A stretch of DNA of 64,000 nucleotides from positions 32,001-96,000 of IMG/VR virus record IMGVR_UViG_3300012948_000003; one strand, 5' to 3'. Source of the stretch: a virus. The notes beneath the pieces were generated by a model, which was given only the letters and a program-made list of their open reading frames with translations, made no database searches and was not told where the DNA came from. The position numbers were made by a program, and so were the translations under genes. Below are positions 1-63,629 of this stretch, in pieces (the first letter of the stretch is position 1; every line of letters begins with the position of its first letter).

Positions 1-3000
1 GAATGGATAATTTGTCGGGTCCTCTTCGGGATTCTTGTGAGCATGCACATCTACCATTATCCTGTTCGGAAGCATTACCGCTTCATTGGTTGGCAGGCTG
101 ATCTCTTTGACGAACTGCGGCAAGCCGTTATTCAATACTTGTACGCGACCTAAGTACTGTGGGCTCATTTCATCAGAGCCGTAAATTTCTATATCAGCAC
201 CGGGTACTGTCATACTGCGTATTAGCTTGACAGGGATATTGTCGGGATGCCTTGCATCTTCCGCTGTGATCTGCTTCCCGTTGATATTCATATCGAAGTC
301 ATACGGAAGTCGATGACGCGCCAAAAACTCAGCTGCTTGAGTTGCCAGACCGTTAGTTCCGGTTTCCTCCATCTGGAACTTTGTATTCTCAGCTTCCTGA
401 AAAGGCTCGCGTACTTGCAGCCGCAGGAGCGTACCTGTTGGTTCCGGTTTGTCTAAAACGCGAGTCTCAAACTTCAAGCCTCCTTCCATCGGACGAGACC
501 ATTGCATATACGCTGGTCGGTCATCGCGGTGCAGGCTAGTAACAATAGACTCGTGGTACTTCCCAGTTTCAGGATCGCGATAGACCGTACGTACGTCTGC
601 CTTTTCAGCATTCCCCATCAACGCGGCTATCGCGATGCCGAGTCCGCCTGAAGCGCCTTGCTCCTTTCCCCACGTGCCACCTATGTTGACGAATTGATTC
701 TTTACGACATCTGGAGGCATTCCAGTGCCGTTATCTTGAATCCGTATCATTCGGTTAGCTGTATTGACAGTGAGTTCAATGTGTCCTCGTTCACCTTCCT
801 TGAAGTCCATTCTGCGAAGCGCGTCTACTGCATTCTGTAATCCCTCCTTTACCATCGTCCGGGGAAGATTACCCTTGTAGAGTCCGCCTATCATAATCGC
901 TTGCAGGCGTGGCTCAATCCCCATCCCGATCTCGCCCTCACGGACCTCGATCTTCGAAGGACGCTCCGGGAATGCTCTACTGAGAAGGACATTTTCTTCT
1001 GATGGATCGTAGGTGCCTATATTGCCAGTGGCGCTCTTGATCTGTTTAGGATCGAAGGCAATATAGGAATCTTCGGCTGTCGGCCACCGCTTCTTGAAAT
1101 CGGCATCAGTCATCCGGTTGCCAAACATGAAAGCAGCCATTAGGTCCCGGTTAACGCCTTCGCGACGATTCAGGTAAACGATTCCATCATAGCCTGAGTC
1201 AGTAATAATCTTTCTCAGCTTCTCATTGAGTCTTTGATGAACCGCTCCGCCTATTCCGGTTTTGGCATATACCCTGTCGAGCAGCTTATCGTGCTCGCGA
1301 TCCGAAATCAGTCCTGCATCGTAGAGCTGTGGGATTATTTCCTCTGGTCTGAAGTTACCGTTATCGACCATGCGCAACGGGTTCTTCATCGAGAGATAGA
1401 CGGGCATTACATTTGTTCCTTCGCCCTCTATTCCTTTTCTGCCCTGCTTCAACATCATTGTTTCGGCAAGGTCGTTGACTTGATTTTGAGTTCCGAAATG
1501 CGTACCTATTTCATCTGTATCGGCTCTTCGACCTTTCGTGTCGAAGGTATGGAAGTCTTCATTCGTGACGTGTTGCAGAACTTTCGGCGAACCATCGGGC
1601 TCCTTCAACCCTTCATAGTTACCTTCAGTGAATTTCTCCAGCGGTGTTCCTAACGCCTCTGCGCCCATTGGAACCTCTCTCATGAAAGGTCCGAGCTTAA
1701 GCCGTTCTTCCTTCTTCTTCGGGAATCTCTTCGCGAGTAGAGTACCCTCCTTTTCGTCTGGATGCGCAATCAGCGCAAGTTTTAGTTGTCTTTGTGCCTC
1801 CTGCGGAAATTCTTTTAAAAGAAAAGGGTGTTCTCCACGAACAGAGTCATATGCATCTTTCAGATAATCGACAGCAGCGGTCGCTTCTGGCGTCATCCGT
1901 CCAGCCTGAGCCCCCTCCAGACCTTTTGCCAGCGATCCAATAGGGTTCTCGTGAGACGCAAGAATGGACTTGACTGTGTCTATTGTATCTTCAAGGTCAT
2001 GTCCCGGCTTACGTGTAGGTAGGATTACTTTCGATATCTCTTCGATTGCGTCATCCAGCATCTTACGACGATCAGGCGTAGTCGTGTGATAGTCTCTCCA
2101 GAACTGAGTCCGTCGTTCTTCGACATCGGCAGGTACCTGACCAATCCTTCTAAATGGAGCTGTGGTCTTGAATGCTTTGACCTTCTTTGAAAGCAGAGGT
2201 TCGTCTTCGGTCGGATGCACTATTTGGTTCCGGTTGAAGATCAGCATCTCTTCTCGCGGACCCGGTCTCATATTCCGCATGATGATCGCGTCGTGACCTT
2301 CCGACTCTGCCCAGTCTCGTAGACCTTGAAGATCATTGCTATCCCGAACTTCATACTTGTTTCCATTATGCGAGTAGACGTCGAACGGTAAGGTCTGCGT
2401 GTTGGCAATAGGATCGACAAACATTCCCTCCGGTGTTTCATCGATTATGTTTAATCGCGGACTCAGCTTGCCATTAACTGTTTGCAGGACCTCTTCGGGA
2501 TCGATAATCAGCGGGTTCCTGACGCGGACCTGCGTACTAACGACGTGACGTCCGTAGTATCGCGCAGTGTCTTCATCCTGACCAAAGTAAATTCCCTTCC
2601 CGAGACTACCGGGATAGCCGGGCTCGCGCTCTTCGAGATTCTCTGGAGTAAGAGTGTCGTCGTCGCTGCCGTGATGCGCTTCGAGTATTTGTTCGTCCGG
2701 GAATCGTCTTGACAGTTCTGGTTCTTCGCCGGGCTTAGGCACGAGTGAGAGCTTCCGCGTCTTCGGAGTCAGTTGATCAAGAGTTTCTTCGACTAGGTTA
2801 CGTCCGACTGATCGATGCGAGCGTCCAGTGTTGATCGGTACTAGCTCGCCGTATTTCCGAACGTACTCTTCCTTGAGTCTATCAACTCCGCCGCGATAGC
2901 CTTCCTTGTATCGTTGATCGGCGTACCTGTCGAATGTCAAGAGGTATTGATTGTCTAGTTCTTTTAAGTCTTCAGGTGAGAGTGAGGCGAGCTTATCCTC

Positions 3001-6000
3001 TAAGCGCTTCTTTAAGAACTTCGCTCTACCGGGTAGGACTTTGCCACCGAAGCGCTTTGCGAGCTGAGGATTGTCCTCGTAGAACTGGTTTAGTTCTTCC
3101 TGCTCGTTGCGTTCCATTTCTTCAAGGTCTGCTTCGAGCGGAGACTTCCCGTAGGGATACGCTGGCTCAGTCGCTCCGTGATCTTGAGGAAATTCGCGAG
3201 ACTCGAATGGTAACTCTAGCTGTTCTGCCTGCGGTACTCCTCCTCGACCGCGCTGTCCCCGCCTTGTCGGTACGCCTCCAGCAATCGGTGGAGGCGATCC
3301 AGAGACTCCGGGGTAAGGCTCGACTCCGGTTGGTTGAACAGATCGGGGAGGTCCTCCTTCAGTCGCTGCTGTACTTCCTCCCGGCTCAAGATTTGCATAT
3401 CCTCTTTCCGTAGCGGATTCGGTCTGTAGACGCGCCCTCTTCTCTTCATAAAACCTCCGGTTCTCTTGTCTGACTTCTAACGCGGCTCGCTGTAATACGC
3501 TTTCTGCCGCATCGCCATAATGTTCGTTAAGAGTCCTGATAACATGTTTCACTAATCGCGCCTGTTCGTCAAGGGAAAGACGGAAATTTGGCGGCGCGGT
3601 AGGTTCGGCTAAATTTCTACTGCCGCCACCTACATGGCCTATTACTTCCATTGCTCGGACTATTGGATCATTGTCGTAACCTTTGGCGGCAAGTATCATA
3701 TCCATTTTTAAAGCCGCCAATTCGTCATGTGTCAGGTCGTTAATATCTTCTTTTTCAAACCCGAACAGTGCATTAGTAAAGCTCGCAACTCGTTCCCGAT
3801 CCTCAAGTCTCGGAAACGAATTACGAAGCACTGTCATTGCGGAATGAGTACCCTCATGACGAATAGTTGTAATAAACGCTCGTAATCCCTTCGCGCCTTC
3901 CATCCCCGGTTCTGTACCTGTATACGGGCTTACTATTTCATACGCTGGTTCGTTCTTTTGATAAGCGTCCACTAGATCGCGGTAAAGCGTATAAAGAGGA
4001 CTACTGGGAGGAAGATCGAAGAACTGTATTGTCTTCCCTAGTTCGTATGCCAGCTTACCGTAGCCATCGCGCTTCATACTTGCGCCGTCCGCCTCTTGAA
4101 CGTCCATTATCGTACCAAGAACTCGACCAGCAGCATCGTTCAGAAAAGCTCGACGTATTCGCCCCGGTCGTGGCGACTCTTCCGCCTGTCGCCTCTGTGC
4201 GAACTTCACCGATATTCTGCGAGAAGTGACATCGCGATCATCCAGCGCTCTGTCGGAAGTACTATTAAGCGATAGCAGCGGAGGCTCTGACGGTTCGCCT
4301 GCGAGATAGCCCGGCAGGTCTCGCTCAAGGTCATCCTGATTAATGAGCCGCTCACCAACCGGGACGCCTTGCGACGTATAACCTAATCCTCTCGCTTCGC
4401 TATGGCCCAGTGCCGCATACGCTACTCGCTCCGCATCCCACATGCGCTCTTGAACTTCAGCAGGCTTGATACGGAGCTGCCGTGCAACCTGTCGCCACGC
4501 TTCATCAGCGAGACGTCGCATCTTGATATTCTCTTGATTTAGTTTACCTCCCCACGGTTGATCGCTGATCGGTCTGCCGAAGTATCGCGCCATCGTGCGA
4601 GCATACCAGAGGTCCTTCGTGATCGGTCCGAACTCTCCCCAGCGATTCAAGATATAGCTTCCCTGCTTTGGAGAACTATCCCCTAACGCAAACACGCCGA
4701 AGGACGGATTGACTTTATCAAGATACTCGTGCTTCTTGATCTTCTTAGCAGCGTCCTTCCCGATCATATCAACGATCTCGCTCCACGGATGCTTTGTAGC
4801 CATCCAGTCGATTGCTGCACCGAGATCGCCATCGAACCTTGTAGTCAGTAGCTCATTGAACCGATTAAGGCTTCGGATATTGAATGCCTTCGTCAGCTTT
4901 GCCCGTTTCGTTGGATGACGTAATTCCTCATTGCCCTTCCGGATGAAAGTCTTCTTCCCGGTCGCTGCATCGATGTAGACTGGTTGCCTTATTTCTTTCC
5001 CGGTCACGGGATCGAACTTCAATCCTGCTTCTCTTCTAGGTACCCACTCTGTCGGAATCCAGTCTGCTTTCTGTCGCGTTCGAGTATAGTAATCGTATAC
5101 TGGCTTAAGTCCGCCGAGTCCGGTAGCTGTGCCTGTACGTACATATTCATCGAACGCTCGCATCCCGTATGCGGTGTCCATACCGGGAGGCTGAGCGCCG
5201 GATGCATACGCAGAAAGCATATGAAGGAAAGAAATCTCCGGATCGGTTAACTGACGATCATAGCGACCTTCCGCCCACTTCTGAAGCAACGGATTAGTTC
5301 TTTCGGTGATATCTGTCGAATAGAACGGCACATAGTCTCGTGCGATCCTTCTCCACGCTCTTATTTCAGCGAGTGTATGCTTGACGATTGCTTCTATTGC
5401 ACGGCGCTGACCAGAAGGCGTATTTAGATTCATTCCACGGGTAACAACCGGACGTCTCGCCCCGTATGCACCGAGCCACTCCTTTGATTTCTTCAGCGCC
5501 TGCTTCGCTCGACCTGTCCCAACGACCGGGAATGGAGGCTCACCTCGTAGGAAGCGCTCGATCTGTAGAAGCGGTGGTTCGATATCGGGTTCGGGTTCTT
5601 CGACCTCAGCCCATTGAGAGTCTCTCTCTGGCATAACAGGTCTGAAGTGTTTCATGAATAGGATATTGCCTTCGTCATCCCTCAGTTCCTGTTGTGCTCG
5701 CTTGTAGGCTTCGGGGAAATGCTCCTTTGCGACGTCTGGATAATTGGCAAGTAACTGCTCCCAGTCGGTCGGGTATTCCGGTTGCCCTGCATCCCGACGT
5801 CCTACGTTAATCGAATCCATGATTGACTTGAATTTCTCGGGACTAAAGAACGCAGGACCTTCAATGCCGATATCTGCCCACTCGACACGTGGCAGGTCTA
5901 AGTTCTTACCTCTCGCCGTCCAGTGGGATCGTCCTTGTTCATCACGAACAAGAGTCTCGCCATTAGGCAATCGTCCGATAGCAGTGACATTGCCCCAGTC

Positions 6001-9000
6001 TTTCCGCCAGCCCGGAATCATAGGAGCGTTCTCGCCCAGTTCACCATGACGTTGCTCAGCGAAAGCATCCTGTTGCTCTTTGGGCGTCATCGCCTTCGCT
6101 GGTGCTTCCGCTGGCTTCGGTGCTCCGACGAAGGCAGGGATACCTTTCTCGATCAGCTCTTCGCCGGGTATTACTGGCGGAGCTGGCGGAGGCAATGTTA
6201 CCGCTGGTGCTCTTGCTGCCGCCTCTGCCTCTTCGGCTGTCGGCTCACCTCGACCTCTGAATTCTTCTGGCTCCTCCCAGCCTTCGGGCAGCGGTCGTTC
6301 CGGTACTTCATATGATCGCGGAGTAAAGCCCAACGAAGCCATACGAGCCCTGTAGTCTTCCGGTGATTCACCCGCGAGACGGTACCCGGCAGTTGACACA
6401 CGTCGTTCAGGACCCGCGTAAGGTGCAGGAACCGTTTCGGGTCCTTGTATTACTTGAGGAGCTGCTGGCGTAGGCTCTTCCCATGCTCCGTACTGCTGAC
6501 GAAGATGTTCGAGCTGCTCCGGTGTTGCTACTGGTTCTTCCGGTGGAGGCACTGCGGGAACTTCTTCCGGAGCTGGCGCACGACGACCCGCTTCGAGTTC
6601 TTCTCTGCTACGCCATCGGACTTGATAGCCAGTTATGTAGTTTGGTACTGCGCCTCTTCTGGTGGTTCGCGTGACGATCTCGCCTCTAGCGCCTTCTGGC
6701 AGATTCGCTAGGAACCTTTCAGCTGATTCTCTGCTGTTGCGTCCATAGACAGGACTCATTCTGTAATCCGGGCGCACGTCGGTCACATCTGAGATATCAT
6801 AGCTTCGTAGGGTTCCGTCTTCACCGATTACCTGTACCTTACTTCCTCTTCGTCTGACTACTTGTAGCGGCTCACCAGTGCCTCTTGTAGTTCTTCCAGT
6901 GTAGTAGACGACCTGCCCTTGTAATGCTGGAGTAGGAGTCTTGATTCTCTCTGGTCCTACGAGCGCTACTGGAATATCCGGACGACCCGGAGACCTCCAG
7001 ACATTATCTTCTCTCTGATACGGATACCATTTGCCTCCCACTTCTATGAAGGTGGTCGGCGTTGGAACTGGCGAGACGAATGGTTCACGGGCTCCCGGAA
7101 GCTCTTCGCCCGGTAGAGGTCTCGCTTCGAAACCTCTCTCTGCTACTTCAGGAGGAGCTGGAGCTGGCGGAGGTGGACCTGTCGGTGGCATTATTCCACG
7201 ACCGCGCATGATGTGATGCAGCTCTTCGAGATTCAGCGGCGGAGTATCATCAGGCAATGAATGAAAGACCTGTCGCTCGACATCATGCAATGGTCGTCCG
7301 AACTGTTCTCGTTCGAGATTCTCCGCTTCCGCATGTGCGCGTTCTTCTGCTCGTGCTCGATGCCATGCTGGAGTCGCTACTTGTAGACGTGCCGTACCGG
7401 GAACTACTTCGAAGCCGCGACCAGCTTCTTCAGCTGCACGGGGTCCACGTATCCTTGCCTCTTCCGCTCGGAACGCATCAGCGAGTTGCTGCTTTCTCTC
7501 GATTGGAAGCGCTGCCGCTTCTGCTGGCGTAATTCCTTGCCCGGCGAGAAACTCATTGAGCCGATTCCTCAGCCTTAGCTGTGCGGCAGACGGAGGTCCG
7601 ACTCCCGGTTCTGGAACACCGTACGCCGCAAAGCCCGGACCTTGTATTGGAGCTTGCTCAGCTATTGCCCTGCCTCGCTCACGGGCTTCATAAGCGGGAC
7701 CATGTGGGCCAGCTAATGCTTCAGTACCGTACATTAGGATGGCGTTCATCAGAGCCTGACGTTGACCTTCCGGCGTTGATAGATCAGGTAATCGACCTGA
7801 TACGATTGCTTGTGGAAGTTCAAATCCTCCGGTTGCTAATGCACCTCGTGCCGCTAATCCTCTTATTCCTCCCCACGGTACTTCGCTGGTAAGAGCGCCT
7901 GCGAGTTTCGCCCCGGCAGCGGTCGTTATACCATGCATGACCGCTTCTCTGTACGGCAGTCCCTGACCGAGAGCTTGCGTAAAGCTCATAATGCCAAGTC
8001 CGACGTTACCACCTCCAGCAGCGAACAACGGAATCAGCTCCGCAGCTGCACCAGCTACTTGTTCTGGTGTAAGCGGACCGGGCTGAGGAGCGCCGGGTCC
8101 TGTTGCTCCGACTTCCTGCCACGCTCGACCTGCCGTGCCCAATGCTCGACCTAACGGAGCAAGCGGTCTCATCTGAGAATACCCCAGCCGAGCATCCTCT
8201 AATAATCTCCCTGCGCCAGACAGCATAGCTCCGCCACCGCGACCCATCGCACCACCTATAAGCTCCAACGGCCAATCTAGTACATCTCCGCCTCTTGCCG
8301 CCAATTGCTCTATGTATGGTAATGCTGCTCGACGTCGTTGCTCTGCTGCGGCAGCAGCTTCCTGCGCCTGTCGCGCTTGCGTTGCTTGCTGTTCTGCGGC
8401 TAGCCATTGCTCACGGCGAGCGGCGATTGCTTCCGGCGTCATCTCGGGCGCACCAGCAGCAGCCATTCGACGAAGCGTTCTGCTTATCGGTTGGGTTACA
8501 CCACTCAGTGCTTGAACTGCTTGAAGCGCAGTCTGATATTCAGGAGATGTTAAGAGCTTTCGAACATCAGGAGGGAGCTTTTGGAGGGAGGTAGGAATCT
8601 TAAAAGGTTTCTTCGGGGCAGTTATCGACGGCCATTGTATTCCGGTGTTAGGATCAGTATCATATCGTACAGAGTAACCCCACTCCTGCTTGAGTTGATC
8701 GGCAACATTCGCTGCACCTTCGAGATCGCCTCGGGCTTTTAAGCTCTCGAAGTTCTGCGCTACGAGTTCGTCGGGACGTGGTTTCCATGCTGGAGCAGGA
8801 GCTGCTGGCGGAGGTGCAACAGGCGGAGCCGCTGGCGGAGCAGCGCCTTCATCCGGTAAGGCATCAGGGCTGATAGACCCCATTGCCGCGACATGTACAT
8901 GATTAGAATGTTTACCTATAGCACCTACCGATTGACCGCCTCGCCATCCACCAACAGGATCGTGATACAGTTCTGCCAGATTCGGACCGTAAGTATCCCG

Positions 9001-9270
9001 GAGATGCTCGGTGAATGCTCTCATCGACTCGGGCGCACCTGTAAAGTCCCAGCCCTCACCAGCGACGTGCATCGAACCCGGTCTACCACCTACGGCGCGA
9101 TTATGCGCAGGCGTACGCTTTGCCGACGAGAGAGTCAGACCATAACCCTGAGCTTCTCGCGTCAGCGTCTCTTGAGGATTAGCCCCGAGGTCTGCCCACT
9201 GCGGCAAGTCCTCTGGATTAATCGGCGCTAATGCCTGCGGGTTTTGTTGGAATTGTGATGGGTCTTCCAT
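1..9270 (-). CDS. Giant polyvalent virion/ejection protein (>3090 aa, 3' end outside window): N-terminal M15-like peptidase, HhH-GPD/DUF7178-like domain, zincin metallopeptidase, two ART-PolyVal-like ADP-ribosyltransferase domains
   Basis: ATG at 9270 (MEDPSQFQQNPQ). No closed ORF in this frame appears in the track and hand-translated blocks are open, so it runs off position 1. Motifs: SAKRTPAHNRAVGGRPGSMHVAGEGWDF..HSNHVHV (~8890-9130); SPKQGSYILNRWGEFGPITKDLWYAR..EVQERMWDAER (~4400-4700); HEGTH (3844-3858); AHHGS..GKGIYFG..ARYYG..NPL..GHDAII..EMLIFNRNQI (~2220-2690); DGSPKVLQHVT..HFGT..NVMPVYLSMKNPL..GYDGIVYLN..SYIAFDPKQIKSATGN (~990-1610). Confidence 0.88.
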   Translation of the reverse strand, partial: MEDPSQFQQNPQALAPINPEDLPQWADLGANPQETLTREAQGYGLTLSSAKRTPAHNRAVGGRPGSMHVAGEGWDFTGAPESMRAFTEHLRDTYGPNLAELYHDPVGGWRGGQSVGAIGKHSNHVHVAAMGSISPDALPDEGAAPPAAPPVAPPPAAPAPAWKPRPDELVAQNFESLKARGDLEGAANVADQLKQEWGYSVRYDTDPNTGIQWPSITAPKKPFKIPTSLQKLPPDVRKLLTSPEYQTALQAVQALSGVTQPISRTLRRMAAAGAPEMTPEAIAARREQWLAAEQQATQARQAQEAAAAAEQRRRAALPYIEQLAARGGDVLDWPLELIGGAMGRGGGAMLSGAGRLLEDARLGYSQMRPLAPLGRALGTAGRAWQEVGATGPGAPQPGPLTPEQVAGAAAELIPLFAAGGGNVGLGIMSFTQALGQGLPYREAVMHGITTAAGAKLAGALTSEVPWGGIRGLAARGALATGGFELPQAIVSGRLPDLSTPEGQRQALMNAILMYGTEALAGPHGPAYEARERGRAIAEQAPIQGPGFAAYGVPEPGVGPPSAAQLRLRNRLNEFLAGQGITPAEAAALPIERKQQLADAFRAEEARIRGPRAAEEAGRGFEVVPGTARLQVATPAWHRARAEERAHAEAENLEREQFGRPLHDVERQVFHSLPDDTPPLNLEELHHIMRGRGIMPPTGPPPPAPAPPEVAERGFEARPLPGEELPGAREPFVSPVPTPTTFIEVGGKWYPYQREDNVWRSPGRPDIPVALVGPERIKTPTPALQGQVVYYTGRTTRGTGEPLQVVRRRGSKVQVIGEDGTLRSYDISDVTDVRPDYRMSPVYGRNSRESAERFLANLPEGARGEIVTRTTRRGAVPNYITGYQVRWRSREELEAGRRAPAPEEVPAVPPPEEPVATPEQLEHLRQQYGAWEEPTPAAPQVIQGPETVPAPYAGPERRVSTAGYRLAGESPEDYRARMASLGFTPRSYEVPERPLPEGWEEPEEFRGRGEPTAEEAEAAARAPAVTLPPPAPPVIPGEELIEKGIPAFVGAPKPAEAPAKAMTPKEQQDAFAEQRHGELGENAPMIPGWRKDWGNVTAIGRLPNGETLVRDEQGRSHWTARGKNLDLPRVEWADIGIEGPAFFSPEKFKSIMDSINVGRRDAGQPEYPTDWEQLLANYPDVAKEHFPEAYKRAQQELRDDEGNILFMKHFRPVMPERDSQWAEVEEPEPDIEPPLLQIERFLRGEPPFPVVGTGRAKQALKKSKEWLGAYGARRPVVTRGMNLNTPSGQRRAIEAIVKHTLAEIRAWRRIARDYVPFYSTDITERTNPLLQKWAEGRYDRQLTDPEISFLHMLSAYASGAQPPGMDTAYGMRAFDEYVRTGTATGLGGLKPVYDYYTRTRQKADWIPTEWVPRREAGLKFDPVTGKEIRQPVYIDAATGKKTFIRKGNEELRHPTKRAKLTKAFNIRSLNRFNELLTTRFDGDLGAAIDWMATKHPWSEIVDMIGKDAAKKIKKHEYLDKVNPSFGVFALGDSSPKQGSYILNRWGEFGPITKDLWYARTMARYFGRPISDQPWGGKLNQENIKMRRLADEAWRQVARQLRIKPAEVQERMWDAERVAYAALGHSEARGLGYTSQGVPVGERLINQDDLERDLPGYLAGEPSEPPLLSLNSTSDRALDDRDVTSRRISVKFAQRRQAEESPRPGRIRRAFLNDAAGRVLGTIMDVQEADGASMKRDGYGKLAYELGKTIQFFDLPPSSPLYTLYRDLVDAYQKNEPAYEIVSPYTGTEPGMEGAKGLRAFITTIRHEGTHSAMTVLRNSFPRLEDRERVASFTNALFGFEKEDINDLTHDELAALKMDMILAAKGYDNDPIVRAMEVIGHVGGGSRNLAEPTAPPNFRLSLDEQARLVKHVIRTLNEHYGDAAESVLQRAALEVRQENRRFYEEKRARLQTESATERGYANLEPGGSTAATEGGPPRSVQPTGVEPYPGVSGSPPPIAGGVPTRRGQRGRGGVPQAEQLELPFESREFPQDHGATEPAYPYGKSPLEADLEEMERNEQEELNQFYEDNPQLAKRFGGKVLPGRAKFLKKRLEDKLASLSPEDLKELDNQYLLTFDRYADQRYKEGYRGGVDRLKEEYVRKYGELVPINTGRSHRSVGRNLVEETLDQLTPKTRKLSLVPKPGEEPELSRRFPDEQILEAHHGSDDDTLTPENLEEREPGYPGSLGKGIYFGQDEDTARYYGRHVVSTQVRVRNPLIIDPEEVLQTVNGKLSPRLNIIDETPEGMFVDPIANTQTLPFDVYSHNGNKYEVRDSNDLQGLRDWAESEGHDAIIMRNMRPGPREEMLIFNRNQIVHPTEDEPLLSKKVKAFKTTAPFRRIGQVPADVEERRTQFWRDYHTTTPDRRKMLDDAIEEISKVILPTRKPGHDLEDTIDTVKSILASHENPIGSLAKGLEGAQAGRMTPEATAAVDYLKDAYDSVRGEHPFLLKEFPQEAQRQLKLALIAHPDEKEGTLLAKRFPKKKEERLKLGPFMREVPMGAEALGTPLEKFTEGNYEGLKEPDGSPKVLQHVTNEDFHTFDTKGRRADTDEIGTHFGTQNQVNDLAETMMLKQGRKGIEGEGTNVMPVYLSMKNPLRMVDNGNFRPEEIIPQLYDAGLISDREHDKLLDRVYAKTGIGGAVHQRLNEKLRKIITDSGYDGIVYLNRREGVNRDLMAAFMFGNRMTDADFKKRWPTAEDSYIAFDPKQIKSATGNIGTYDPSEENVLLSRAFPERPSKIEVREGEIGMGIEPRLQAIMIGGLYKGNLPRTMVKEGLQNAVDALRRMDFKEGERGHIELTVNTANRMIRIQDNGTGMPPDVVKNQFVNIGGTWGKEQGASGGLGIAIAALMGNAEKADVRTVYRDPETGKYHESIVTSLHRDDRPAYMQWSRPMEGGLKFETRVLDKPEPTGTLLRLQVREPFQEAENTKFQMEETGTNGLATQAAEFLARHRLPYDFDMNINGKQITAEDARHPDNIPVKLIRSMTVPGADIEIYGSDEMSPQYLGRVQVLNNGLPQFVKEISLPTNEAVMLPNRIMVDVHAHKNPEEDPTNYPF
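1810..1823. repeat. Palindrome TTCTTTTAAAAGAA copy 1 (inside giant ORF)
   Basis: Exact match. Confidence 0.9.
3216..3449 (-). CDS. Small helical protein nested out of frame inside the giant ORF
   Basis: 77-aa ORF preceded by GGAGG-TTTT-ATG; protein-like composition while the host frame becomes G/P/R-rich low complexity. Confidence 0.5.
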   Translation of the reverse strand: MKRRGRVYRPNPLRKEDMQILSREEVQQRLKEDLPDLFNQPESSLTPESLDRLHRLLEAYRQGGDSAVEEEYRRQNS

Positions 9271-9287
9271 TTTCTTTTAAAAGAAAA
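9270..9287. repeat. Palindrome copy 2 (18-bp form, fills the TAA-ATG gap)
   Basis: TTTTCTTTTAAAAGAAAA. Confidence 0.95.
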
Positions 9288-13294: not shown

Positions 13295-15232
13295 TTACGC
13301 TTGCAACTTAACGATAAGTGCTCTTCTAGTCGAAGAAGTAAACGTACCTAAAGTGGAAGGCAAGGCACCGCCGCTGATATTGTTTGAGGTTGTAAATTTT
13401 ACGGGGACCGACCCTTGAGCAACATTCATGTACGACGTATTCTCGGTAAAGAAATTCACCGCTACCACAGCGGTGTCGTCGCAGGCAACGGCTTGAATGT
13501 ACCATCCGGGCTCAAGGGTCACGTCCGCGCCGAGCGTAGTGGTCTTCACTGCGACAGCTCCGGTACCTACGTCGATTTGTCCACTATTAATAAGCAGGCT
13601 TGTTCCGTCATGGTTGTATATGCCAATGTACGCCTTCTTTCCGGCAGACGCCTGCTGCAACCAGAAACATAATTGATGCACAACCAGCTTTAAAGGTAAC
13701 CAAAATCTGACAGCTGTTATATTATTCGCCGATTCAAACTGCGTCTGAGTTACTGCCGCAGTATCACCTATTTCTAGTGCTGGTATAAACCACGACTCTG
13801 ACGAGTTAGATGCATTCGTGCCAGTCGCCCCAGTATAACCCGTGTAACCCGTGTATCCGGTCGCACCTCCAGCACCTCCGGAGCCAGCAGGCCCAGTATA
13901 TCCGGTATATCCGGTATATCCCGTATATCCTGTGTATCCGGTTGGTCCGGTATAGCCCGTGTAACCCGTATAGCCTGTAAAGCCACTATTCGGTCCAGTG
14001 TACCCGGTATAGCCTGTTGCTCCGGTGTTTGTTGCTACCCCGGAAGGACCAGTGTAGCCAGTGTAGCCCGTTGGTCCAGTGTAACCCGTATAGCCTGTGT
14101 ACCCCGTGTACCCAGTCGCCCCGGTGTTTGTTGCCGAACCCGCAGTGCCTGTGTATCCAGTATAACCAGTGTAGCCTGTGTAGCCAGTTGCACCTGTATT
14201 CGTCGCGGAACCAGCAGTGCCAGTATACCCTGTATATCCGCTGTACCCGGTTGGACCCGTGTACCCGGTTGGACCCGTGTAGCCAGTGTACCCGGTCGGT
14301 CCGGTGTAGCCAGTTGCTCCAGTGTATACTGCTGTGCCCGGAACTCCGGTGTAACCAGTATAACCTGTCGGTCCGGTTCGACCAGTGAAGCCAGTATAAC
14401 CAGTATAGCCTGTATATCCGCTAGGCCCGGTGTAACCAGTGTATCCCGTGTACCCAGTCGGTCCAGTGACAGTAGACGCAGCTCCACCTGCGCCTGTGTA
14501 ACCCGTATAGCCCGTGTATCCGGTATAACCCGTCCTGCCAGTGTAGCCCGTGTACCCTGTGTAACCAGTGTAACCGGACGGACCCGTGTAACCAGTCGTT
14601 CCAGTATAACCAGTCGGACCAGTTACCGTCGAAGCAGCTCCACCCGGCCCAGTGGGACCTGTCGGTCCAGTTACGGTAGATGCAGAACCTGTCGGTCCAG
14701 TGTAACCAGTAGGACCCGCAGGTCCTGTAGCGCCGAGACTTACAGCTGCTATTTTAGCATCAATTTGCGTTTTTGTATAGGTAGCAAGGTCTAAGTTAAC
14801 AGCTACAGCGACTGTATAAATACTTAAGTCCGCCCATGTCGCGCAGGTCCCCGCTGGAGCGCAGGAAGTAGTGCTGATGATTACTGGCGGGACCTCGATG
14901 TCCTGCATCCCGGCAACTACACCGATAAGAGCACCGCTATCTCTGTACCAGTAGAAAGTGTATGTTGCTAACTGAGTGATGGCGGTAGCATCCGTAGTTG
15001 ACTTAAGCGTGAACGCAGGAACCGTTACAGTACTGACGCCATCGAATGTACAAGGGATATCGAGATAGTATTGTCCGTTCTCAGGAGACCCACCCGGAAC
15101 ATAAACTGGCGAAGCATCGCTCGTCAGGAAAGACGTAGAAGCAAACACGCGAAGGCGTGGTGGCGCAGCAGCCGTCACACCAACTGCGTGAAAGTCCAAA
15201 ACAGTTTGAGCCTGTACGTGGATGTCAGCCAT
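13295..15232 (-). CDS. Collagen-like (G-Y-T/G-P-T) fibre/spike protein
   Basis: ~300 aa of Gly-X-Thr triplets between globular ends; N-domain paralogous to 33978-37046. Confidence 0.85.
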
Positions 15233-15249
15233 TTTCTTTTAAAAGAAAA
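15232..15249. repeat. Palindrome copy 3 (fills the TGA-ATG gap)
   Basis: 18-bp form. Confidence 0.95.
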
Positions 15250-20013: not shown

Positions 20014-20700
20014 TTATGCCGCCTTTGCTGCTACTGCTTCACTTGCTGCTTCAAGCGCTCCGATATCGCCAGCTGCGATTGCCTGAAGCATCGCTTGAAA
20101 CTGCTGTCCCCATGTTCCCTGTGGACCTGCGTTCTCACCTTCGACTGGAACTAGCATTGCCATAGCGCCGACCGTCACTGCCCAGCGAGATTCATCGGGA
20201 GCCTGACATGCGCTTGTCTGAGTATAGTTCGGAGCTTCTACATCGACACTGACTGTGCCACCACCGCTCTGTGCGGCAATCGCTGCTCCGTTATGGAATA
20301 TCCTGCGCCCTTCGATTCGATAGTGCGGATCAAAGTCCAGCGAGAGCACGTTATCAATCTCGTGCTGAATCTCTGACAACTCCCATGCAACACCTGCTCG
20401 TGTTCCCGGTGAGGTACCACCAGTAACCACAAACCTGACGTCTCCAATCGGACCAGCTGTGCCAGTGATCAATCCGCCATGCGCGACACCAGTCTGGATC
20501 GCATAGTACGATGAAGCGCGAGCATTGTTACGGTTCTTCATATACGCTGCTACAACAGCATCGTCGGCGCTCAGGACAGCATCGACGATCTGCTGTGTTG
20601 CCCAGCGTGGATCGATCACCGTAGCCGAGTAAGCTCCGGGTGTACCAGCGTTCAACAGTAGAACGCAGTCAGTACTGACTACCGACAGAGAGACACTCAT
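20014..20700 (-). CDS. Probable adaptor/virion structural protein
   Basis: ATGA overlap with upstream gene; adaptor-like layout. Confidence 0.45.
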   Translation of the reverse strand: MSVSLSVVSTDCVLLLNAGTPGAYSATVIDPRWATQQIVDAVLSADDAVVAAYMKNRNNARASSYYAIQTGVAHGGLITGTAGPIGDVRFVVTGGTSPGTRAGVAWELSEIQHEIDNVLSLDFDPHYRIEGRRIFHNGAAIAAQSGGGTVSVDVEAPNYTQTSACQAPDESRWAVTVGAMAMLVPVEGENAGPQGTWGQQFQAMLQAIAAGDIGALEAASEAVAAKAA

Positions 20701-21023
20701 TGTTTCACCTTCGCAACAGAGGACGGCACAACGAAAGCTGTCCCGCATTCCTTACAGGTCTCAATGAAACATCCAGTCTCTTTCAGGTACTGGACGTGCG
20801 CTTCATAATCACTTTGAAAGTCCTGTATCTCGCGTATTGCTGCGACTCTGCGACGATAGCGCTCGTCGAACATCGGCGGCTCCCACTCGGAAGCTGCCTT
20901 TCCACACTTCGGGCAGGTACCCGGAGCAGCTGGCTTCATAGCGCCTTCCGGATACACTGTTGTATTTGCAACGTTCAGGAATCCGTCGCCGTGCGGTTCG
21001 AGATTTGGATTTTCTTTTGACAT
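20697..21023 (-). CDS. Hypothetical zinc-ribbon protein
   Basis: CPKC..CKEC. Confidence 0.55.
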   Translation of the reverse strand: MSKENPNLEPHGDGFLNVANTTVYPEGAMKPAAPGTCPKCGKAASEWEPPMFDERYRRRVAAIREIQDFQSDYEAHVQYLKETGCFIETCKECGTAFVVPSSVAKVKQ

Positions 21024-21025
21024 GG

Positions 21026-21043
21026 TTTTCTTTTAAAAGAAAA
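21026..21043. repeat. Palindrome copy 4 (between a minus-strand ATG and the antisense -35 box)
   Basis: 18-bp form. Confidence 0.95.
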
Positions 21044-21046: not shown

Positions 21047-21075
21047 TTGACATCAGGGATGTCTCGGGTTACTAT
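21047..21075 (+). promoter_or_regulatory. Sigma70-type promoter, antisense to the structural operon
   Basis: TTGACA (21047-52), 17 nt, TACTAT (21070-75); palindrome immediately upstream. Confidence 0.7.
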
Positions 21076-23984: not shown

Positions 23985-24194
23985 ATGCGCTACACGAAAG
24001 CACAACAAGAACAGATTAGACGTGCGACAGAGCGCCTTTTAAATCCCGAAGGTCCACTTCCTGAGAAACATACCTGTAGTCACCCCGAACGCGACTGGAA
24101 CGAACTAACGTACAAGCAGAAGTCTAAGCGAGATGCCTGTGCGCGTTGCCGCTGGTTCAGACGAGTTGCCCGGCAGCACCGGGTCTATGAATAA
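23985..24194 (+). CDS. Small Cys/His protein, probably near-leaderless
   Basis: HTCSH..CARC; no SD; ATG right after the -10 box. Confidence 0.5.
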   Translation: MRYTKAQQEQIRRATERLLNPEGPLPEKHTCSHPERDWNELTYKQKSKRDACARCRWFRRVARQHRVYE

Positions 24195-25041
24195 TGAAGG
24201 TGTCTACTCCCTTGCGACTGGTAAACTTTGCCTTATGCGATTTGTAGGCATCACGGATTCGCAATCTCATTTCCTCGCGTTCTTTCTCGGATCGCTTCTC
24301 GTGAGCATCTGCTAGCCGCTTCAAGTTCTGATACATCGTCAATTCATCGGGAGCCTCGGTCCAATCATGTCGGTAAGGCTCGTCAAGATTCTTTCTCCAT
24401 AAGCTCTCGACATAAAGCATATCCAGATCGGAAGGTGGACGAAAGAGACCAAAGCATTTCCGGCGCTCCTCCTTTGCCTTGTCACAACACCTTCGACCGC
24501 GTTCGTGTACCCAAATCGGATGAAACCCGAGATAGTAGATTCCTTCCCGAGGGAAAGCGCCCATGTCAGCGGCGGGATTCCTTACTTCATCAAGTACACG
24601 TCTGCGAGCTTCCTCCCACGAACCGATAAGAGTCGGAGCGAACCATTGCGAAATCCAGAAACGCGGGATGCCGATCTCTTCTTTGTAAAGCATCAGCGGA
24701 TACGGAAGACCTGCCACTTCGCCGAGCTTTACTTCGGTCCGAGCCCGATCCATTGTATTCGATCCTACTTTCAGATCGAACTTACGCGTACGTATCCAAC
24801 GTCCTGTATCACGATCCGTGTAGTCGATTGCCCACCCGACTTGTCTATCGCGAGAATAGGCAAGATATTTCAGCGCGGAAGTATAAGGCGTCCACGTTGC
24901 AGTTGATCCCCATTCTAGTCGCAGCTTAGGCAGACCGTTTGGTGTTAATCCGGCTATGCGGACTAACTCACGCTGCCATCGATCTGTGATTGGTGGTGGC
25001 GAGAAGTTCTGCTGTGGAGGCCAAATGTCGAGTGGATTCAT
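24157..25041 (-). CDS. Hypothetical protein
   Basis: 294-aa ORF coupled (ATGA) to the GT gene. Confidence 0.7.
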   Translation of the reverse strand: MNPLDIWPPQQNFSPPPITDRWQRELVRIAGLTPNGLPKLRLEWGSTATWTPYTSALKYLAYSRDRQVGWAIDYTDRDTGRWIRTRKFDLKVGSNTMDRARTEVKLGEVAGLPYPLMLYKEEIGIPRFWISQWFAPTLIGSWEEARRRVLDEVRNPAADMGAFPREGIYYLGFHPIWVHERGRRCCDKAKEERRKCFGLFRPPSDLDMLYVESLWRKNLDEPYRHDWTEAPDELTMYQNLKRLADAHEKRSEKEREEMRLRIRDAYKSHKAKFTSRKGVDTFIIHRPGAAGQLV

Positions 25042-26051
25042 ACAGCTACCTTTTCTTTTAAAAGAAAACGAGCAAGCAGCTCTGAGTCGTTAGCAGGATC
25101 GTATGTTGCTTCAAAGATATCGCGTATCGTCAAACACATTCGTTCATAGTGGTCTTCTGGCATTTCAGTGATCATCTTCGCTGCTTCCTCTACGGAATGC
25201 TTGTCGAGATCGATACAGGAGATGCCGTCGCTCCAGAAGATCGAAGCACGTTGTCCTTGATAATAGCTGGCGTGACCTATCAGGGGTCTACCTATCGCTG
25301 CCCAGCAATGCAAAACATGTCCGAATCCGTCACCTGTCGGCTTGTCGTGATAGGCCCAGTCAGCAAGCGTCATCTCTTCTGCTATTGCTGCCACTGGGGT
25401 CAGGAATCCGTCCGGGCAATCGTGACCATAAGACCGGAACATAAATTTAGGCATCAGCGCTCGAAGCCTACAGAACGGTTCCCAGCATTCCGGAATCAAT
25501 GGAAGCAGATTCAGGAACGATGTCACACGCTGCGTGTATCGCGGTGAGCGATAACGGAAAATCGAATCGGAGTCAAACTCCTGACTAATATGCAATCCAC
25601 GTCCGCCGAGAGGTATCATTGTCGAATCAAGCGCGAGTGGATCGAGCTGCCAGTTCACTGCCTGACGTGCATTACCGATATGATAGAGATACTTTGCGCC
25701 GATCTCATTTGCGAAGATACGGAACCCGAGCTGATTCTCCTGTACGGTTGCGATAACACAGTCCCACCTCATACTCCGCGCCCGACTAAGAGTAATGCCG
25801 TAGATCGGACGTTCAGGGTGGCACGAATCAAAGGTCAGGAAGATTCCGGGCTCAATCTCACGGAAAGCAGCGGTATTCAAAAACTGCTTCGCTAATCTAT
25901 CGTCACCGTATGCCTGACCAAACTTCCAGTAGTCCGCATCCCACCAATCGCGACCGACAGGCACATAGAGTCGATAATTCAGTCTGTCTTCGAAGAGCCG
26001 CTGTAATGAGTACAGCAAGTCTGCGTGATGTCTATCCGCTAGAACATTCAT
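25038..26051 (-). CDS. GT-B-fold glycosyltransferase-like protein
   Basis: DGFGHVLHCWAAIGRPLI, a variant of the E-x-F-G-x4-E-A-x3-G-x-P motif. Confidence 0.65.
   Translation of the reverse strand: MNVLADRHHADLLYSLQRLFEDRLNYRLYVPVGRDWWDADYWKFGQAYGDDRLAKQFLNTAAFREIEPGIFLTFDSCHPERPIYGITLSRARSMRWDCVIATVQENQLGFRIFANEIGAKYLYHIGNARQAVNWQLDPLALDSTMIPLGGRGLHISQEFDSDSIFRYRSPRYTQRVTSFLNLLPLIPECWEPFCRLRALMPKFMFRSYGHDCPDGFLTPVAAIAEEMTLADWAYHDKPTGDGFGHVLHCWAAIGRPLIGHASYYQGQRASIFWSDGISCIDLDKHSVEEAAKMITEMPEDHYERMCLTIRDIFEATYDPANDSELLARFLLKEKVAV
25051..25068. repeat. Palindrome copy 5 (3' end of GT gene, encodes FLLKEK)
   Basis: 18-bp form. Confidence 0.95.
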
Positions 26052-27055
26052 CCTAAGAATTCCTTCCACTGCTTTGCTATGGTTTCCTTACCGAACAGCT
26101 CGATTGCACGAGCACGTTGCGCTGCGGACACCTTTGCGGAGTACTCCGATGAAGAAAGTAACTCCACCAGCATATCGTGCGCATTGGTCGGACTATTCGC
26201 CCAGTGTCGTGCTATTTCATGTCCTTCGAATAACTGCGGACTGTAAGGAAAGACCTGCATACGTAACGGACCAATAGAGACAACCGGGATACCAGTCATC
26301 ATCGCTTCTACCAAACCGAGTGTATAGGCTGCTGGCTGCGTTCCAGTGTACAAATAGGCTCGATAGAGCCGAAGCGCAGCCTTCATCTCTTGCAAGGAAA
26401 TCTCACCCGGTCCTTCAATGAACTCCGATCCCGGTCCGATTGCTTTATGAGGAAGACCACGTGTTGCTTCGTCCCAAAAGCTCCAGTTCGTAAAGGGCTC
26501 GCGCTGACGGAGCTGCTGCGTAATATTAATAACGCATTCATACTCGCCGCCGCCCCAACCTGTCCATTCATCCGGGTCCTTATAGAAACGAATCAATGCG
26601 TCACGACCAGCATAGGAAGGGATGTTTTCTTCCTTCGGCGAATAGCGCACAATCTGTAAGCCTTGCTCGCGGAACGGCTTCATCATTTTCTCGTTGTTCT
26701 CTACCGACTGCCCGACTGTTCGCCAGATCACTCGCTTGTGTTTTATGCGATCCCACTGCGGGACCAACCACGTATGTTCCCGATGGTGAATGATGATTGT
26801 CTCGCACCAGTCGAGTACCGCATCCGGGACGTGCTGCTTCGCTGCTTCGAGATTGTCAGGAGTTCTTAGTGTATCAACTACCTCCTTCAAGTCGGGATGA
26901 TAAGGCGCATCAGGTATCGCCGGGCGCTTTGGATCATGCGGCATATGCGGATTAATATAGCCTCCCAGTGAGAACACATCGTAGCCCAGCTCGGATAGAA
27001 GTTTTACCTGATCGTATTCTTCTATCGAGTGAGCCAGCATCAAGAGAACTCTCAT
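26048..27055 (-). CDS. GT-B (GT4-like) glycosyltransferase
   Basis: YTLGLVEAMMTGIPVVS..F...IAKQWKEFL. Confidence 0.8.
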   Translation of the reverse strand: MRVLLMLAHSIEEYDQVKLLSELGYDVFSLGGYINPHMPHDPKRPAIPDAPYHPDLKEVVDTLRTPDNLEAAKQHVPDAVLDWCETIIIHHREHTWLVPQWDRIKHKRVIWRTVGQSVENNEKMMKPFREQGLQIVRYSPKEENIPSYAGRDALIRFYKDPDEWTGWGGGEYECVINITQQLRQREPFTNWSFWDEATRGLPHKAIGPGSEFIEGPGEISLQEMKAALRLYRAYLYTGTQPAAYTLGLVEAMMTGIPVVSIGPLRMQVFPYSPQLFEGHEIARHWANSPTNAHDMLVELLSSSEYSAKVSAAQRARAIELFGKETIAKQWKEFLG

Positions 27056-27056
27056 A

Positions 27057-33224: not shown

Positions 33225-33238
33225 TTCTTTTAAAAGAA
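33225..33238. repeat. Palindrome copy 6
   Basis: Core, just after stop at 33240. Confidence 0.95.
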
Positions 33239-37047: not shown

Positions 37048-37061
37048 TTCTTTTAAAAGAA
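37048..37061. repeat. Palindrome copy 7 (portal stop to fibre ATG)
   Basis: Core. Confidence 0.95.
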
Positions 37062-41287: not shown

Positions 41288-41301
41288 TTCTTTTAAAAGA
41301 A
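41288..41301. repeat. Palindrome copy 8
   Basis: Core, abuts SD. Confidence 0.95.
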
Positions 41302-44785: not shown

Positions 44786-44803
44786 TTTTCTTTTAAAAGA
44801 AAA
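44786..44803. repeat. Palindrome copy 9
   Basis: 18-bp form after collagen stop. Confidence 0.95.
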
Positions 44804-59014: not shown

Positions 59015-59015
59015 T

Positions 59016-59029
59016 TTCTTTTAAAAGAA
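59016..59029. repeat. Palindrome copy 12
   Basis: Core, contains a stop codon. Confidence 0.95.
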
Positions 59030-59308: not shown

Positions 59309-59309
59309 A

Positions 59310-61020: not shown

Positions 61021-61069
61021 TATTGCCCAGCGATACCTGCACTTCTCGCAGACCATAAAGACTACTGGT

Positions 61070-61480
61070 TCAGGCGGATCGAGTGGAACTTGCGCCATGA
61101 TCACACACCAGATGTCCGCATACTTCACAAGCAGGTAACAGCTCGATGCGCTTGCCGCCTTTGATATCTATTCGCTCTCCTACCTTCGTGAAGAACTCGA
61201 AGTCAATGCGATGTCGTTCTGCTGCGCGTTCTTCTAAAAGAAAAATCATCATCCGAGCGTGATAGATAGCTTTCTGATTCGCCGCGTGTGGCTTCTGCTT
61301 GTCAACATAGTTCAAGCGATCTATTAACATCCTGAGAACTTCTTGAACTTGTATTCCGCCGTGATGACCACGATTCCACGGGTAACCTTTGCCGTTTCGT
61401 TTAACGAATGCCACGTGCTGCAACGGACCATTGTCGATTGCTTCAAGCAAATAAGAATGCCCGGCGCTCAGTACTTTCAT
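61070..61480 (-). CDS. Possible divergent Tad1/Acb2-like protein with C-terminal CxxC
   Basis: GHSY.L..Q.VAFVKR..G.QVQEVLRMLIDRL.Y..P..AN..AI..LEERA..R. Confidence 0.5.
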   Translation of the reverse strand: MKVLSAGHSYLLEAIDNGPLQHVAFVKRNGKGYPWNRGHHGGIQVQEVLRMLIDRLNYVDKQKPHAANQKAIYHARMMIFLLEERAAERHRIDFEFFTKVGERIDIKGGKRIELLPACEVCGHLVCDHGASSTRSA

Positions 61481-62263: not shown

Positions 62264-62435
62264 AGCTTTCTCCTTTGTCTGGTATATGGACTTAGGTGTT
62301 CAGCTAGCAGAACAATTGCTATGCTCAGCACGAAAATGAATTCAATCATCATTGGGGCCTTGCCTTTTCTCGCGTTCCAGTCTTTCCATTCCAATAGCGC
62401 CGTATCTGTAACAACTATCACATCCGCAGATCGGG

Positions 62436-63405: not shown

Positions 63406-63629
63406 TTTTCTTTTAAAAGAAATTCACTGAGTTCTTCGTTGCGTCTTGCCTGTGCTGCAATCATTGGATGCTTCGCAAGGAACTTCTCCCAACAATCGTT
63501 GCAGCATTCCGAGAGATCACCTGAACTTAACAACGACATCTCTCGAAGTGGCTTCGCTGCTCCGCAATGTAAGCAATGATACCGTGCCTCGTATTCTTCC
63601 GTCTGGTGCTTACGTCGCGGCATATTCAA
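63402..63629 (-). CDS. Small zinc-finger protein
   Basis: CLHC..CNDC; ends FLLKEK, encoded by the palindrome. Confidence 0.5.
   Translation of the reverse strand: MNMPRRKHQTEEYEARYHCLHCGAAKPLREMSLLSSGDLSECCNDCWEKFLAKHPMIAAQARRNEELSEFLLKEK
63408..63421. repeat. Palindrome copy 14
   Basis: Core. Confidence 0.95.

Follow-up and report, generated by a model that had tools for sequence, protein, structure and literature searches.

The closest published analogue of the element described here, an analogue and not a homologue, comes from the Cluster O mycobacteriophages, Corndog and its relatives, which carry a 17-bp dyad repeat (TGTTCGG-NNN-CCGAACA) with 34 copies in Corndog (PMC4351075). More than 30 of these near-invariant inverted repeats are distributed genome-wide, about one third of them being intragenic, and a dimeric regulator was inferred by the authors, neither the function nor the binder being established (PMC4351075). 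The element that we analysed is a 14-bp perfect palindrome, TTCTTTTAAAAGAA (layout TTCTT-TTAA-AAGAA), present in 14 exact copies in a 64,000-nucleotide (nt) stretch of viral DNA, called the window, which corresponds to bases 32001-96000 of the IMG/VR virus record IMGVR_UViG_3300012948_000003 (G000), and in 25 exact copies in the whole 104,444-bp record.

Two other kinds of dispersed phage repeats are relevant to this comparison. The stoperators of Cluster A phages (L5, Bxb1) are 13-14-bp sites present in about 20-35 copies, largely in short intergenic gaps, which block transcription elongation and repress promoters and whose specificity co-evolves with the DNA-binding protein of the phage (PMC9283540, PMC6550527). 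They are asymmetric, oriented with transcription and bound by the monomeric immunity repressor of temperate phages (PMC9283540). The start-associated sequences of Cluster K are 13 bp long and are located a few nt upstream of the start codon (mostly ATG), often over the upstream stop codon; they are non-palindromic, have a single orientation and an AGGAG core, and are found only in the non-structural half of the genome (PMC3203893).

Our analysis led us to read the palindrome, with a probability of about 0.5, as a dispersed, lineage-specific duplex-DNA site for a dimeric protein acting on phage transcription. The analysis shows directly the sites with their copy statistics, the contexts in which they are found, the variant proper to each lineage and the retention of positions; protein binding, the dimer and the transcriptional role are inferences.

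The palindrome and its variants in three genomes

The family compared consisted of three genomes: G000, G001, which was reached through terminase homologues, and G003, which was reached through a homologue of the zinc-ribbon protein described below. G001 is a complete relative of 104,058 bp whose large terminase (TerL) is 57% identical to that of G000 and which is syntenic with G000 at 25-70% protein identity. G003 is a 29-kb fragment collinear with positions 51-65 kb of the G000 genome (the positions called genome positions below are those of the G000 record).

The 14 copies listed by the initial annotation, which was made from the letters of the window, were all exact, and the copy with one mismatch that it placed at 61229 was also present. 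Its estimate of far less than one expected copy agreed with the mean of 0.01 copies with at most one mismatch obtained for the window in 100 dinucleotide-preserving shuffles. The relaxed pattern TCTT-N4-AAGA was found 32 times in G000, 56 times in G001 and 20 times in G003, compared with shuffle means of 1.3, 1.5 and 0.4, respectively. A chance origin was rejected on the basis of the copy number relative to the shuffles and of the variants present in independent assemblies. An assembly artefact was rejected as well, copies being in frame within long open reading frames (ORFs) and variant forms being present in two independent assemblies. Only single chance matches to TTCTTTTAAAAGAA were found in other viral contigs, and a literature search for the exact words of the three genomes returned incidental matches, none of them in a phage context.

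No copy of TTCTTTTAAAAGAA was found in G001. The G001 form, TTCTT-CCGG-AAGAA, was present 30 times as TTCTTCCGGAAGAA, 51 times as the 12-bp core and 57 times as the 10-bp core, and the G003 form, TTCTT-CCAG/CTGG-AAGAA, was present in 19 copies in 29 kb as TCTTCCAGAAGA or its complement TCTTCTGGAAGA. Comparison of the three forms showed that the arms TTCTT(T/C) are common to all genomes and that each centre is exclusive to one of them (TTAA, 25 copies in G000; CCGG, 51 copies in G001; CCAG/CTGG, 19 copies in G003). The central dinucleotide is always a pyrimidine-purine step, TA in G000, CG in G001 and CA/TG in G003, and these are all three possible kinds.

Comparison of G001 and G003 showed that sites were kept at the same junctions when the flanking sequence had diverged. 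The sites shared by these two genomes are:

Upstream and downstream of the 499/509-amino-acid (aa) gene
After the 91/93-aa gene
After the 336/343-aa gene
Codons 3-6 of the 216-aa gene

Two G001/G003 junctions kept the whole series of stop codon, motif, 7 nt, TTGAC(A/T), 17 nt and -10 box. At one homologous in-gene site, GAT TCT TCC GGA AGA is matched by GAT TCT TCT GGA AGA, the change of the centre being synonymous, and at a second one TCC GGA AGA is matched by TCC AGA AGA, where the change of the centre costs a replacement of Gly by Arg. The codons beside both sites differ freely. This retention at orthologous junctions and at two sets of homologous codons, with diverged flanks, indicates that selection acts on the DNA. 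The possibility that the in-gene copies of the two giant ORFs are at homologous positions was rejected, no homology being detectable in these regions. The initial annotation had proposed that the motif be looked for at orthologous positions in relatives, where its absence would have spoken against the element; sites were present there, in the form of the lineage-specific variant.

A recombination junction or self-spreading repeat, in which co-infecting relatives would exchange cassettes through the ERF, YqaJ, RecA and RusA proteins of the phage or the repeat itself would be copied, with no dedicated regulator, is an improbable explanation for these data. The orthologous G001/G003 sites stayed in place and each centre changed by one transition on either strand, which points to site-by-site selection and not to recent copying; moreover, 14 bp is short for homologous recombination and the fixed promoter spacing described below would be left unexplained. 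Sites were enriched at the boundaries between conserved and variable genes in G001 (23/54 vs 22/101, P=0.009), but no such enrichment was found in G000. Three further observations are in favour of this explanation. The genes for collagen-like tail fibres, whose location is not syntenic in G000 and G001, are flanked by copies on both sides; all sites of a genome have one and the same centre, which holds for the asymmetric centre of G003 too, as would be the case for copies of a master sequence; and deletions between Cluster O repeats have been reported (PMC4351075).

A wider search for the family, by structural-protein alignment and by a centre-agnostic pattern of motif plus promoter, recovered only G001 and G003. 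The 2.6-kb contig L047, which carries the closest terminase relative (72% identity), contains a single 16-bp perfect palindrome, CATACGTTAACGTATG, at positions 2358-2373, the last three bases of which are possibly a start codon. This sequence could be the version of the element of another lineage. It was rejected as a third motif type, not being repeated in the contigs examined.

Gene starts, promoters and the form in which the site is read

Most G000 copies occupy the gap between a stop codon and the next start codon, as the initial annotation had stated. An ATG-initiated ORF of at least 50 aa begins no more than 15 nt downstream of 15 of the 25 copies, whereas random placement, repeated 200 times, gave 3.0 on average and never more than 9, and the same association was found for 21 of 51 sites in G001 (random mean 6.4). 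The start-linked sites, about half of the copies, are located 1-13 nt before the start codon. Read in the direction of the adjacent gene, the motif leads either straight into ATG or into AGGAG with an ATG 9-13 nt further on, and this arrangement holds for genes on either strand. The arrangement TAA-TT-motif-A-ATG is exemplified at window positions 9272, 15234 and 37048. The site itself contains no AGGAG, and the Shine-Dalgarno sequence, if any, is placed after the motif. The copies in the window, with the giant ORF and the promoter that adjoin them, are as follows (window coordinates):

1-9270, continuing to genome position 25,539, minus strand: ORF of a 5243-aa polyvalent protein
1810..1823: motif deep within the 5243-aa polyvalent-protein ORF, read as FLLKE
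9272..9285: motif in the gap that separates a 556-aa gene (stop at 9288) from the giant ORF (ATG at 9270), reading TAA-TT-motif-A-ATG on the minus strand
15234..15247: motif 1 nt before the ATG of a 645-aa collagen-like tail-fibre gene
21028..21041: motif at a divergent hub, 4 nt before the ATG of a 108-aa zinc-ribbon gene (minus strand)
21047..21075, plus strand: sigma70-type promoter match TTGACA-17-TACTAT (10 of 12), just downstream of motif 21028
25053..25066: motif at the 3' end of a 343-aa gene (...FLLKEKVAV), 11 nt before the ATG of a 294-aa gene
33225..33238: motif separated by 1 nt from the stop of the 105-aa ORF before it and by about 90 nt from the 509-aa gene that follows
37048..37061: motif between the stop of a 982-aa gene and the ATG of a 1022-aa fibre-like gene, with 1 nt on either side
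41288..41301: motif, then AGGAGG, with the ATG of a 146-aa gene (minus strand) 11 nt downstream
44788..44801: motif 2 nt past the stop of a 616-aa collagen-like gene, then AAGGAG, with the ATG of an 80-aa gene 13 nt downstream
49994..50007: motif 1 nt before the ATG of a 77-aa DUF1653 gene
54306..54319: motif, then AGGAG, with an ATG 9 nt downstream (121-aa ORF)
59016..59029: motif with an ATG directly after it, the ORF from that ATG being shorter than 45 aa
61005..61018: motif 19 nt before the ATG of a 51-aa ORF
61229..61242: copy with one mismatch, TTCTTCTAAAAGAA on the plus strand, within a 136-aa minus-strand ORF
63408..63421: motif overlapping the C-terminal codons of the preceding ORF (...EFLLKEK stop), 2 nt before the ATG of a 79-aa gene

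Comparison of these positions with the relatives showed that G001 also has a site after the orthologue of the 556-aa gene (copy 9272), upstream of its fibre gene (copy 15234) and past the stop of the orthologue of the 982-aa gene. The junction site after the 343-aa gene (25053) is kept in both G001 and G003, there with a promoter behind it, and the orthologues of the 509-aa gene have a site upstream in both genomes.

The initial annotation had placed the constraint on nucleic acid rather than on protein because copies inside ORFs seemed to be read in different frames (FLLKE and FSFKRK). This detail needs correction for G000: every in-ORF copy checked in credible minus-strand genes is read as FLLKE (1810, 25053, 63408 and a further in-gene copy at genome position 7427), and the ORFs with the FSFKRK frame are all short or antisense and doubtful as genes. 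The constraint on nucleic acid nevertheless holds, because three different frames of the motif (SSGR, LPEE and FFRK) are used by real genes of G001.

The motif is located 7-29 nt upstream of the -35 box in three of the six strong sigma70-type matches of G000 and in seven of the 16 strong matches of G001. The architecture made up of the 10-bp core, 7 nt and TTGAC(A/T), which places the dyad near -47.5, was found in six cases across G000, G001 and G003 and was kept at two orthologous G001/G003 promoters. Copy 21028 shows it in the window, with its 10-bp core 7 nt upstream of the TTGACA -35 box of the plus-strand promoter. The copy at genome position 21858 is located between back-to-back divergent promoters, upstream of both transcription starts, and is therefore absent from both mRNAs. 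Away from the motif, sigma70-type matches were no more frequent than in shuffles. Since such promoters are not enriched over tens of kb, other promoters must exist or the transcripts must be very long.

The motif might itself serve as the promoter of a phage RNA polymerase or sigma-like factor that has escaped recognition, from which leaderless or very-short-leader mRNAs would be made. Both the lack of enrichment of sigma70-type promoters and the ATG, or Shine-Dalgarno sequence and ATG, found directly after the motif are in favour of this possibility, which we consider very improbable all the same: a perfect palindrome would fire both ways, the GC centre of G001 melts poorly, and copies are present deep in genes and upstream of ordinary promoters. 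Furthermore, Pfam and PHROGs scans found no RNA polymerase or sigma domain, the 5243-aa protein included. The latter ORF was rejected as a source of a phage RNA polymerase, the only domains found in it being Peptidase_M15, ART-PolyVal (ADP-ribosyltransferase) and HATPase_c.

Several results bear on whether the site is read as DNA or as RNA. Degenerate copies alter one arm at a time and no compensatory changes were found, either at pair 3-16 in G001 (0/25 variants) or within the 12-bp core (0/20). Changes of the T.G type and of the C.A type were equal (7 and 8), so that no sense-strand wobble pairing is favoured. The RNA hairpin was predicted at -0.5 kcal/mol for either 14-mer and at -2.4 to -3.3 kcal/mol for the extended forms. 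The asymmetric centre of G003 has no preferred orientation (12 vs 7, P=0.36), being divided 2:2 at the four promoter-proximal sites. GC-rich hairpins ending at the T-rich arm were not enriched in G000 (3/25 vs 2.6 at random) or in G001 (3/51 vs 3.5), and an Rfam search gave no match. An intrinsic terminator or a repetitive extragenic palindromic (REP)-like repeat was rejected because of the unstable hairpin, the lack of covariation and the absence of enrichment of upstream hairpins. The independent decay of the arms, the weak hairpin, the unoriented centre of G003 and the copies outside transcripts argue for a reader that is a two-fold symmetric protein on duplex DNA, not an RNA structure or a directional signal.

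The junction after the 91/93-aa gene is the one place where RNA structure looks plausible. The motif is located there within a longer inverted repeat, CCCCTT...AAGGGG, a possible terminator-like hairpin:

G001, 63,590-63,640 (L063:3590-3640): CCCCTT...AAGGGG inverted repeat
G003, 14,300-14,350 (L195): CCCCTT...AAGGGG inverted repeat

These results also bear on an mRNA-level signal, which would lie in the 5' untranslated region and serve translation initiation or RNA processing, in the manner of the Cluster K sequences or of a translational operator of the T4 RegA type. The half of the copies that are close to a start codon replace or precede the Shine-Dalgarno sequence, genes with the motif and then ATG have no separate one, and a weak likeness to a Shine-Dalgarno sequence is seen in the 3' arm, which is rich in purines (GGAAGAA in G001). 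However, palindromy through the centre, as seen in two genomes, is not required by an RNA signal, nor would the hairpin energy or the lack of compensatory changes and of wobble bias be in keeping with one. The asymmetric centre of G003 points with the gene at some sites and against it at others, the mRNAs made from motif-linked promoters do not contain the copies that precede the -35 box, and other copies are deep in ORFs or just past an ATG. We consider an mRNA-level signal to be distinctly unlikely.

Short palindromes that recur over a replicon and are bound by dimers are known from the KorB operators of plasmid RK2 and from the parS/ParB, matS/MatP and Noc-binding site (NBS) systems, and KorB sites, whose distance from promoters varies, serve both global repression and partition. 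A genome-architecture site of this type, which would organise, condense, segregate or package the genome and would affect expression incidentally, is suggested by the copies in every genome module, by the size of the palindrome, which is in the same class as parS, matS and NBS sites, and by its spacing in G000. The initial annotation had described gaps of 2-8 kb at quasi-regular spacing, and the gaps measured in the window were 2.0-8.2 kb. The coefficient of variation (CV) was 0.58 in the genome and 0.38 in the window, against a mean of 0.97 for the uniform null (P=0.003), and the sites were also more even than random gene junctions (P<0.001). In contrast, the spacing of the G001 sites was uneven (CV 1.08), and the density of one site per 1.5-4 kb is far above that of known chromosomal systems. 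The scans of the G000 ORFs found no ParB- or MatP-family protein and no SMC-type binder or loader, although such a protein might be encoded by the host or be too divergent to recognise, and neither the 7-nt spacing to the -35 box in three genomes nor the association with start codons is expected of a purely architectural site. The claim that the site serves genome organisation or segregation rather than being a normal operator was thus left unsupported, and we consider an architectural role unlikely.

The proposed operator, its candidate binder and the phage

The initial annotation had also proposed a site for a dimeric DNA-binding protein. This prediction, of a binding site for a two-fold symmetric protein, is well supported, although indirectly, by the swapped centre, the independent half-sites, the unstable hairpin and the in-gene conservation. 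The palindrome is almost certainly such a site, and the protein most likely a regulator of transcription. The binder would probably be a dimeric, phage-encoded protein, two identical reading heads of which would contact the arms TTCTT(T/C)/(A/G)AAGAA. The central pyrimidine-purine step would be read in a lineage-specific manner, plausibly by DNA shape, and would have co-evolved with the protein. A single transition on either strand would convert CG to CA or TG, which would explain the mixed orientations found in G003.

The sites are of two classes by position. Those of the first class are located upstream of sigma70-type promoters at a fixed distance, where the bound protein would meet RNA polymerase, and those of the second class are located at the 5' edge of genes, between the stop codon and the next ribosome-binding site or ATG. 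The genome is about 100 kb long and has almost all its genes on one strand, and the bound protein may set the boundaries or the activity of transcription units along it, by controlling promoters or by forming a roadblock or insulator that separates one unit from the next. By analogy with the stoperators, a combination of elongation block and promoter repression is the mechanism that we would favour for the palindrome.

A more specific version of this proposal, to which we give a low probability, is that a lytic phage lineage has a palindromic counterpart of the stoperators, in which a Pfam-invisible dimer at 25-57 sites, marking gene 5' edges and the -47.5 position of promoters, would divide the genome into transcription domains, perhaps together with a NusG paralogue and with co-evolution through switching of the central pyrimidine-purine step alone. 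The sites of G000 are about 4 kb apart and even, and the promoter of the NusG paralogue has a site in both complete genomes (G000 and G001).

A candidate for the binder was considered on purely positional grounds, which make it a weak one:

Window 20700..21023, minus strand: 108-aa four-Cys zinc-ribbon protein, with the motif upstream in G000 at the divergent hub

This protein is present in G000, G001 and G003 and belongs to a tiny family, with 27 representatives among 1.8 billion proteins, most of the homologues being 170-225 aa long with an extra N-terminal domain. Its AlphaFold model was confident (predicted local distance difference test, pLDDT, of 92) and matched no fold (Foldseek E >1; best VIA-align Z 2.8), and ribbon-helix-helix proteins gave Z values of only 2.0-2.6 against it, which is noise. 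The G001 ORF reaches 211 aa, with an apparent N-terminal domain and the motif in the linker. Since this ORF is apparently fused to an N-terminal domain, the protein is probably structural, and it was rejected as the binder on the basis of this extended form and of the lack of a fold match.

Several points weigh against the dispersed operator as we propose it. The zinc-ribbon protein, the sole positional candidate, matches no fold and looks structural, and no repressor, helix-turn-helix regulator, sigma factor, ParB or integrase was detected when almost every ORF was scanned against Pfam and PHROGs. A homodimer is not obviously compatible with an asymmetric centre at all 19 G003 sites. The distance from the motif to the -35 box varies (4, 7, 10, 13, 14, 19-20 and 29 nt), and the motif-linked promoters are near-consensus, so that an activator would not be needed. 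Finally, positional conservation between G000 and G001 was at the level of chance, four of the eight comparable sites being conserved when about three were expected, which indicates that sites turn over on the longer time-scale.

The G000 record is a single contig with 51.8% G+C, in which the minus strand carries nearly all long ORFs, and it is an uncultured tailed phage. No close relative was found among 50,697 phage records, and no cultured relative was found, the best TerL match being with Thermus and Tunturiibacter phages at 29% identity. Its genes include those for a large terminase and collagen-like tail fibres, for RecA, DnaB helicase, beta sliding clamp and the recombination proteins ERF and YqaJ, and for Dam-type and FkbM-type methyltransferases, HNH nucleases and RusA. 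The G001 counterpart of the 5243-aa polyvalent protein has 2887 aa and only a few segments in common with it. No tRNA genes were called in G000, no integrase or repressor was found in the scans, and no prophage relatives were found among 185,579 species genomes; the phage looks lytic.

Other features of these genomes were recorded in the course of the analysis:

Genome 98,724-99,320 (L068:2724-3320), minus strand: NusG-family protein (PF02357, E 3e-9)
Genome about 99,560-100,100 (L068:3560-4100): non-coding region, about 550 nt long, in which a tRNA-like T-arm, GCGGGTTCGATTCCCGC, ends immediately ahead of a copy of the palindrome
Window 50600-51680 (minus-strand sense), genome 22,500-22,960 (L067:2500-2960) and L068:2560-2740: arrays with an 18-bp period
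Window 24157-29934, minus strand: glycosyltransferase-like cassette of four genes
G001, L060:1-110 and L065:3850-4058: 'direct terminal repeat' consisting of a 15-bp tandem repeat, CAAGTCCGAGCCGCG

A promoter close to consensus, with a leader of about 185 nt, serves the NusG-like gene of G000 and is preceded by the palindrome copy at genome position 99557; the G001 orthologue of this gene, which is 27% identical, also has palindrome copies at its promoter and start. No call was made by ARAGORN or Rfam in the non-coding region. In the 18-bp-period arrays, GAGCGAGCCA and GAGAGAACCA alternate with 8-nt variable spacers, giving a 36-nt super-period, and the three arrays hold about 59, 24 and 10 units; one of them precedes the gene of a 340-aa protein and another comes after the NusG-like gene. 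The possibility that TIGR-array spacers are aimed at the palindrome or its flanks was rejected, the counts being as expected (6 vs 4.7 and 12 vs 11.2). The 335-aa member of the glycosyltransferase-like cassette is about 70% identical to genes of otherwise unrelated viral contigs with 65% GC (L070-L077), which suggests that the cassette was moved by horizontal transfer. These contigs were rejected as members of the motif family, having only the four-gene cassette in common with G000 and no palindrome. The terminal CAAGTCCGAGCCGCG repeat of G001 could represent either a genuine array at the genome ends or a product of the assembly.

Comparison with known dispersed sites

The comparative data are unusually informative for an element of this type, combining shared arms, centres proper to each genome, sites kept at junctions and codons, and a fixed promoter distance. 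The TA, CG and CA centres on shared arms provide a ready-made specificity test for the cognate proteins. The palindrome offers a route to a new DNA-binding regulator and to the transcription of a one-stranded 100-kb genome with few recognisable promoters, and it can help annotation by marking true gene starts where most proteins have no homologues.

Relative to the KorB, parS and matS sites, the palindrome is denser by far, dispersed, and strongly tied to gene starts and -35 boxes. Comparison with the start-associated sequences of Cluster K showed a similar position shortly before the start codon for roughly half of the palindrome sites. However, the palindrome is symmetric, lacks AGGAG and is present in all modules, where it is also found beside promoters, in genes and just past an ATG. 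The likeness to the stoperators, which is looser than that to the Cluster O repeat, lies in the dispersal over the genome, mostly in short intergenic gaps. In contrast to the stoperators, the palindrome is symmetric in G000 and G001 and unoriented in G003. No repressor, integrase or prophage relative was found for G000.

The Cluster O repeat resembles the palindrome in having dozens of inverted-repeat copies over a 70-100-kb genome, with a mix of short-intergenic, 5'-proximal and intragenic positions, and the 25, 57 and 19 copies of G000, G001 and G003, respectively, are in mixed contexts as are the Cluster O repeats. In both, the orientation of the asymmetric centre is unrelated to transcription. 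The two differ in that their sequences and phage lineages are unrelated, and in that the Cluster O repeat has 7-bp arms and a variable 3-bp spacer whereas the palindrome has 6-bp arms, TTCTT(T/C), abutting a fixed 2-bp centre. The palindrome also has a tighter link to start codons, some of its copies are located at -47.5 beside sigma70-type promoters, and its centre differs between related genomes at orthologous sites. Of the dispersed short repeats described in phages, a mechanism is known for the stoperators only, and not for the start-associated sequences or the repeats of Cluster O. The palindrome is a real, strongly selected, lineage-specific DNA element, which belongs to a known descriptive kind and is found here in a new phage lineage.

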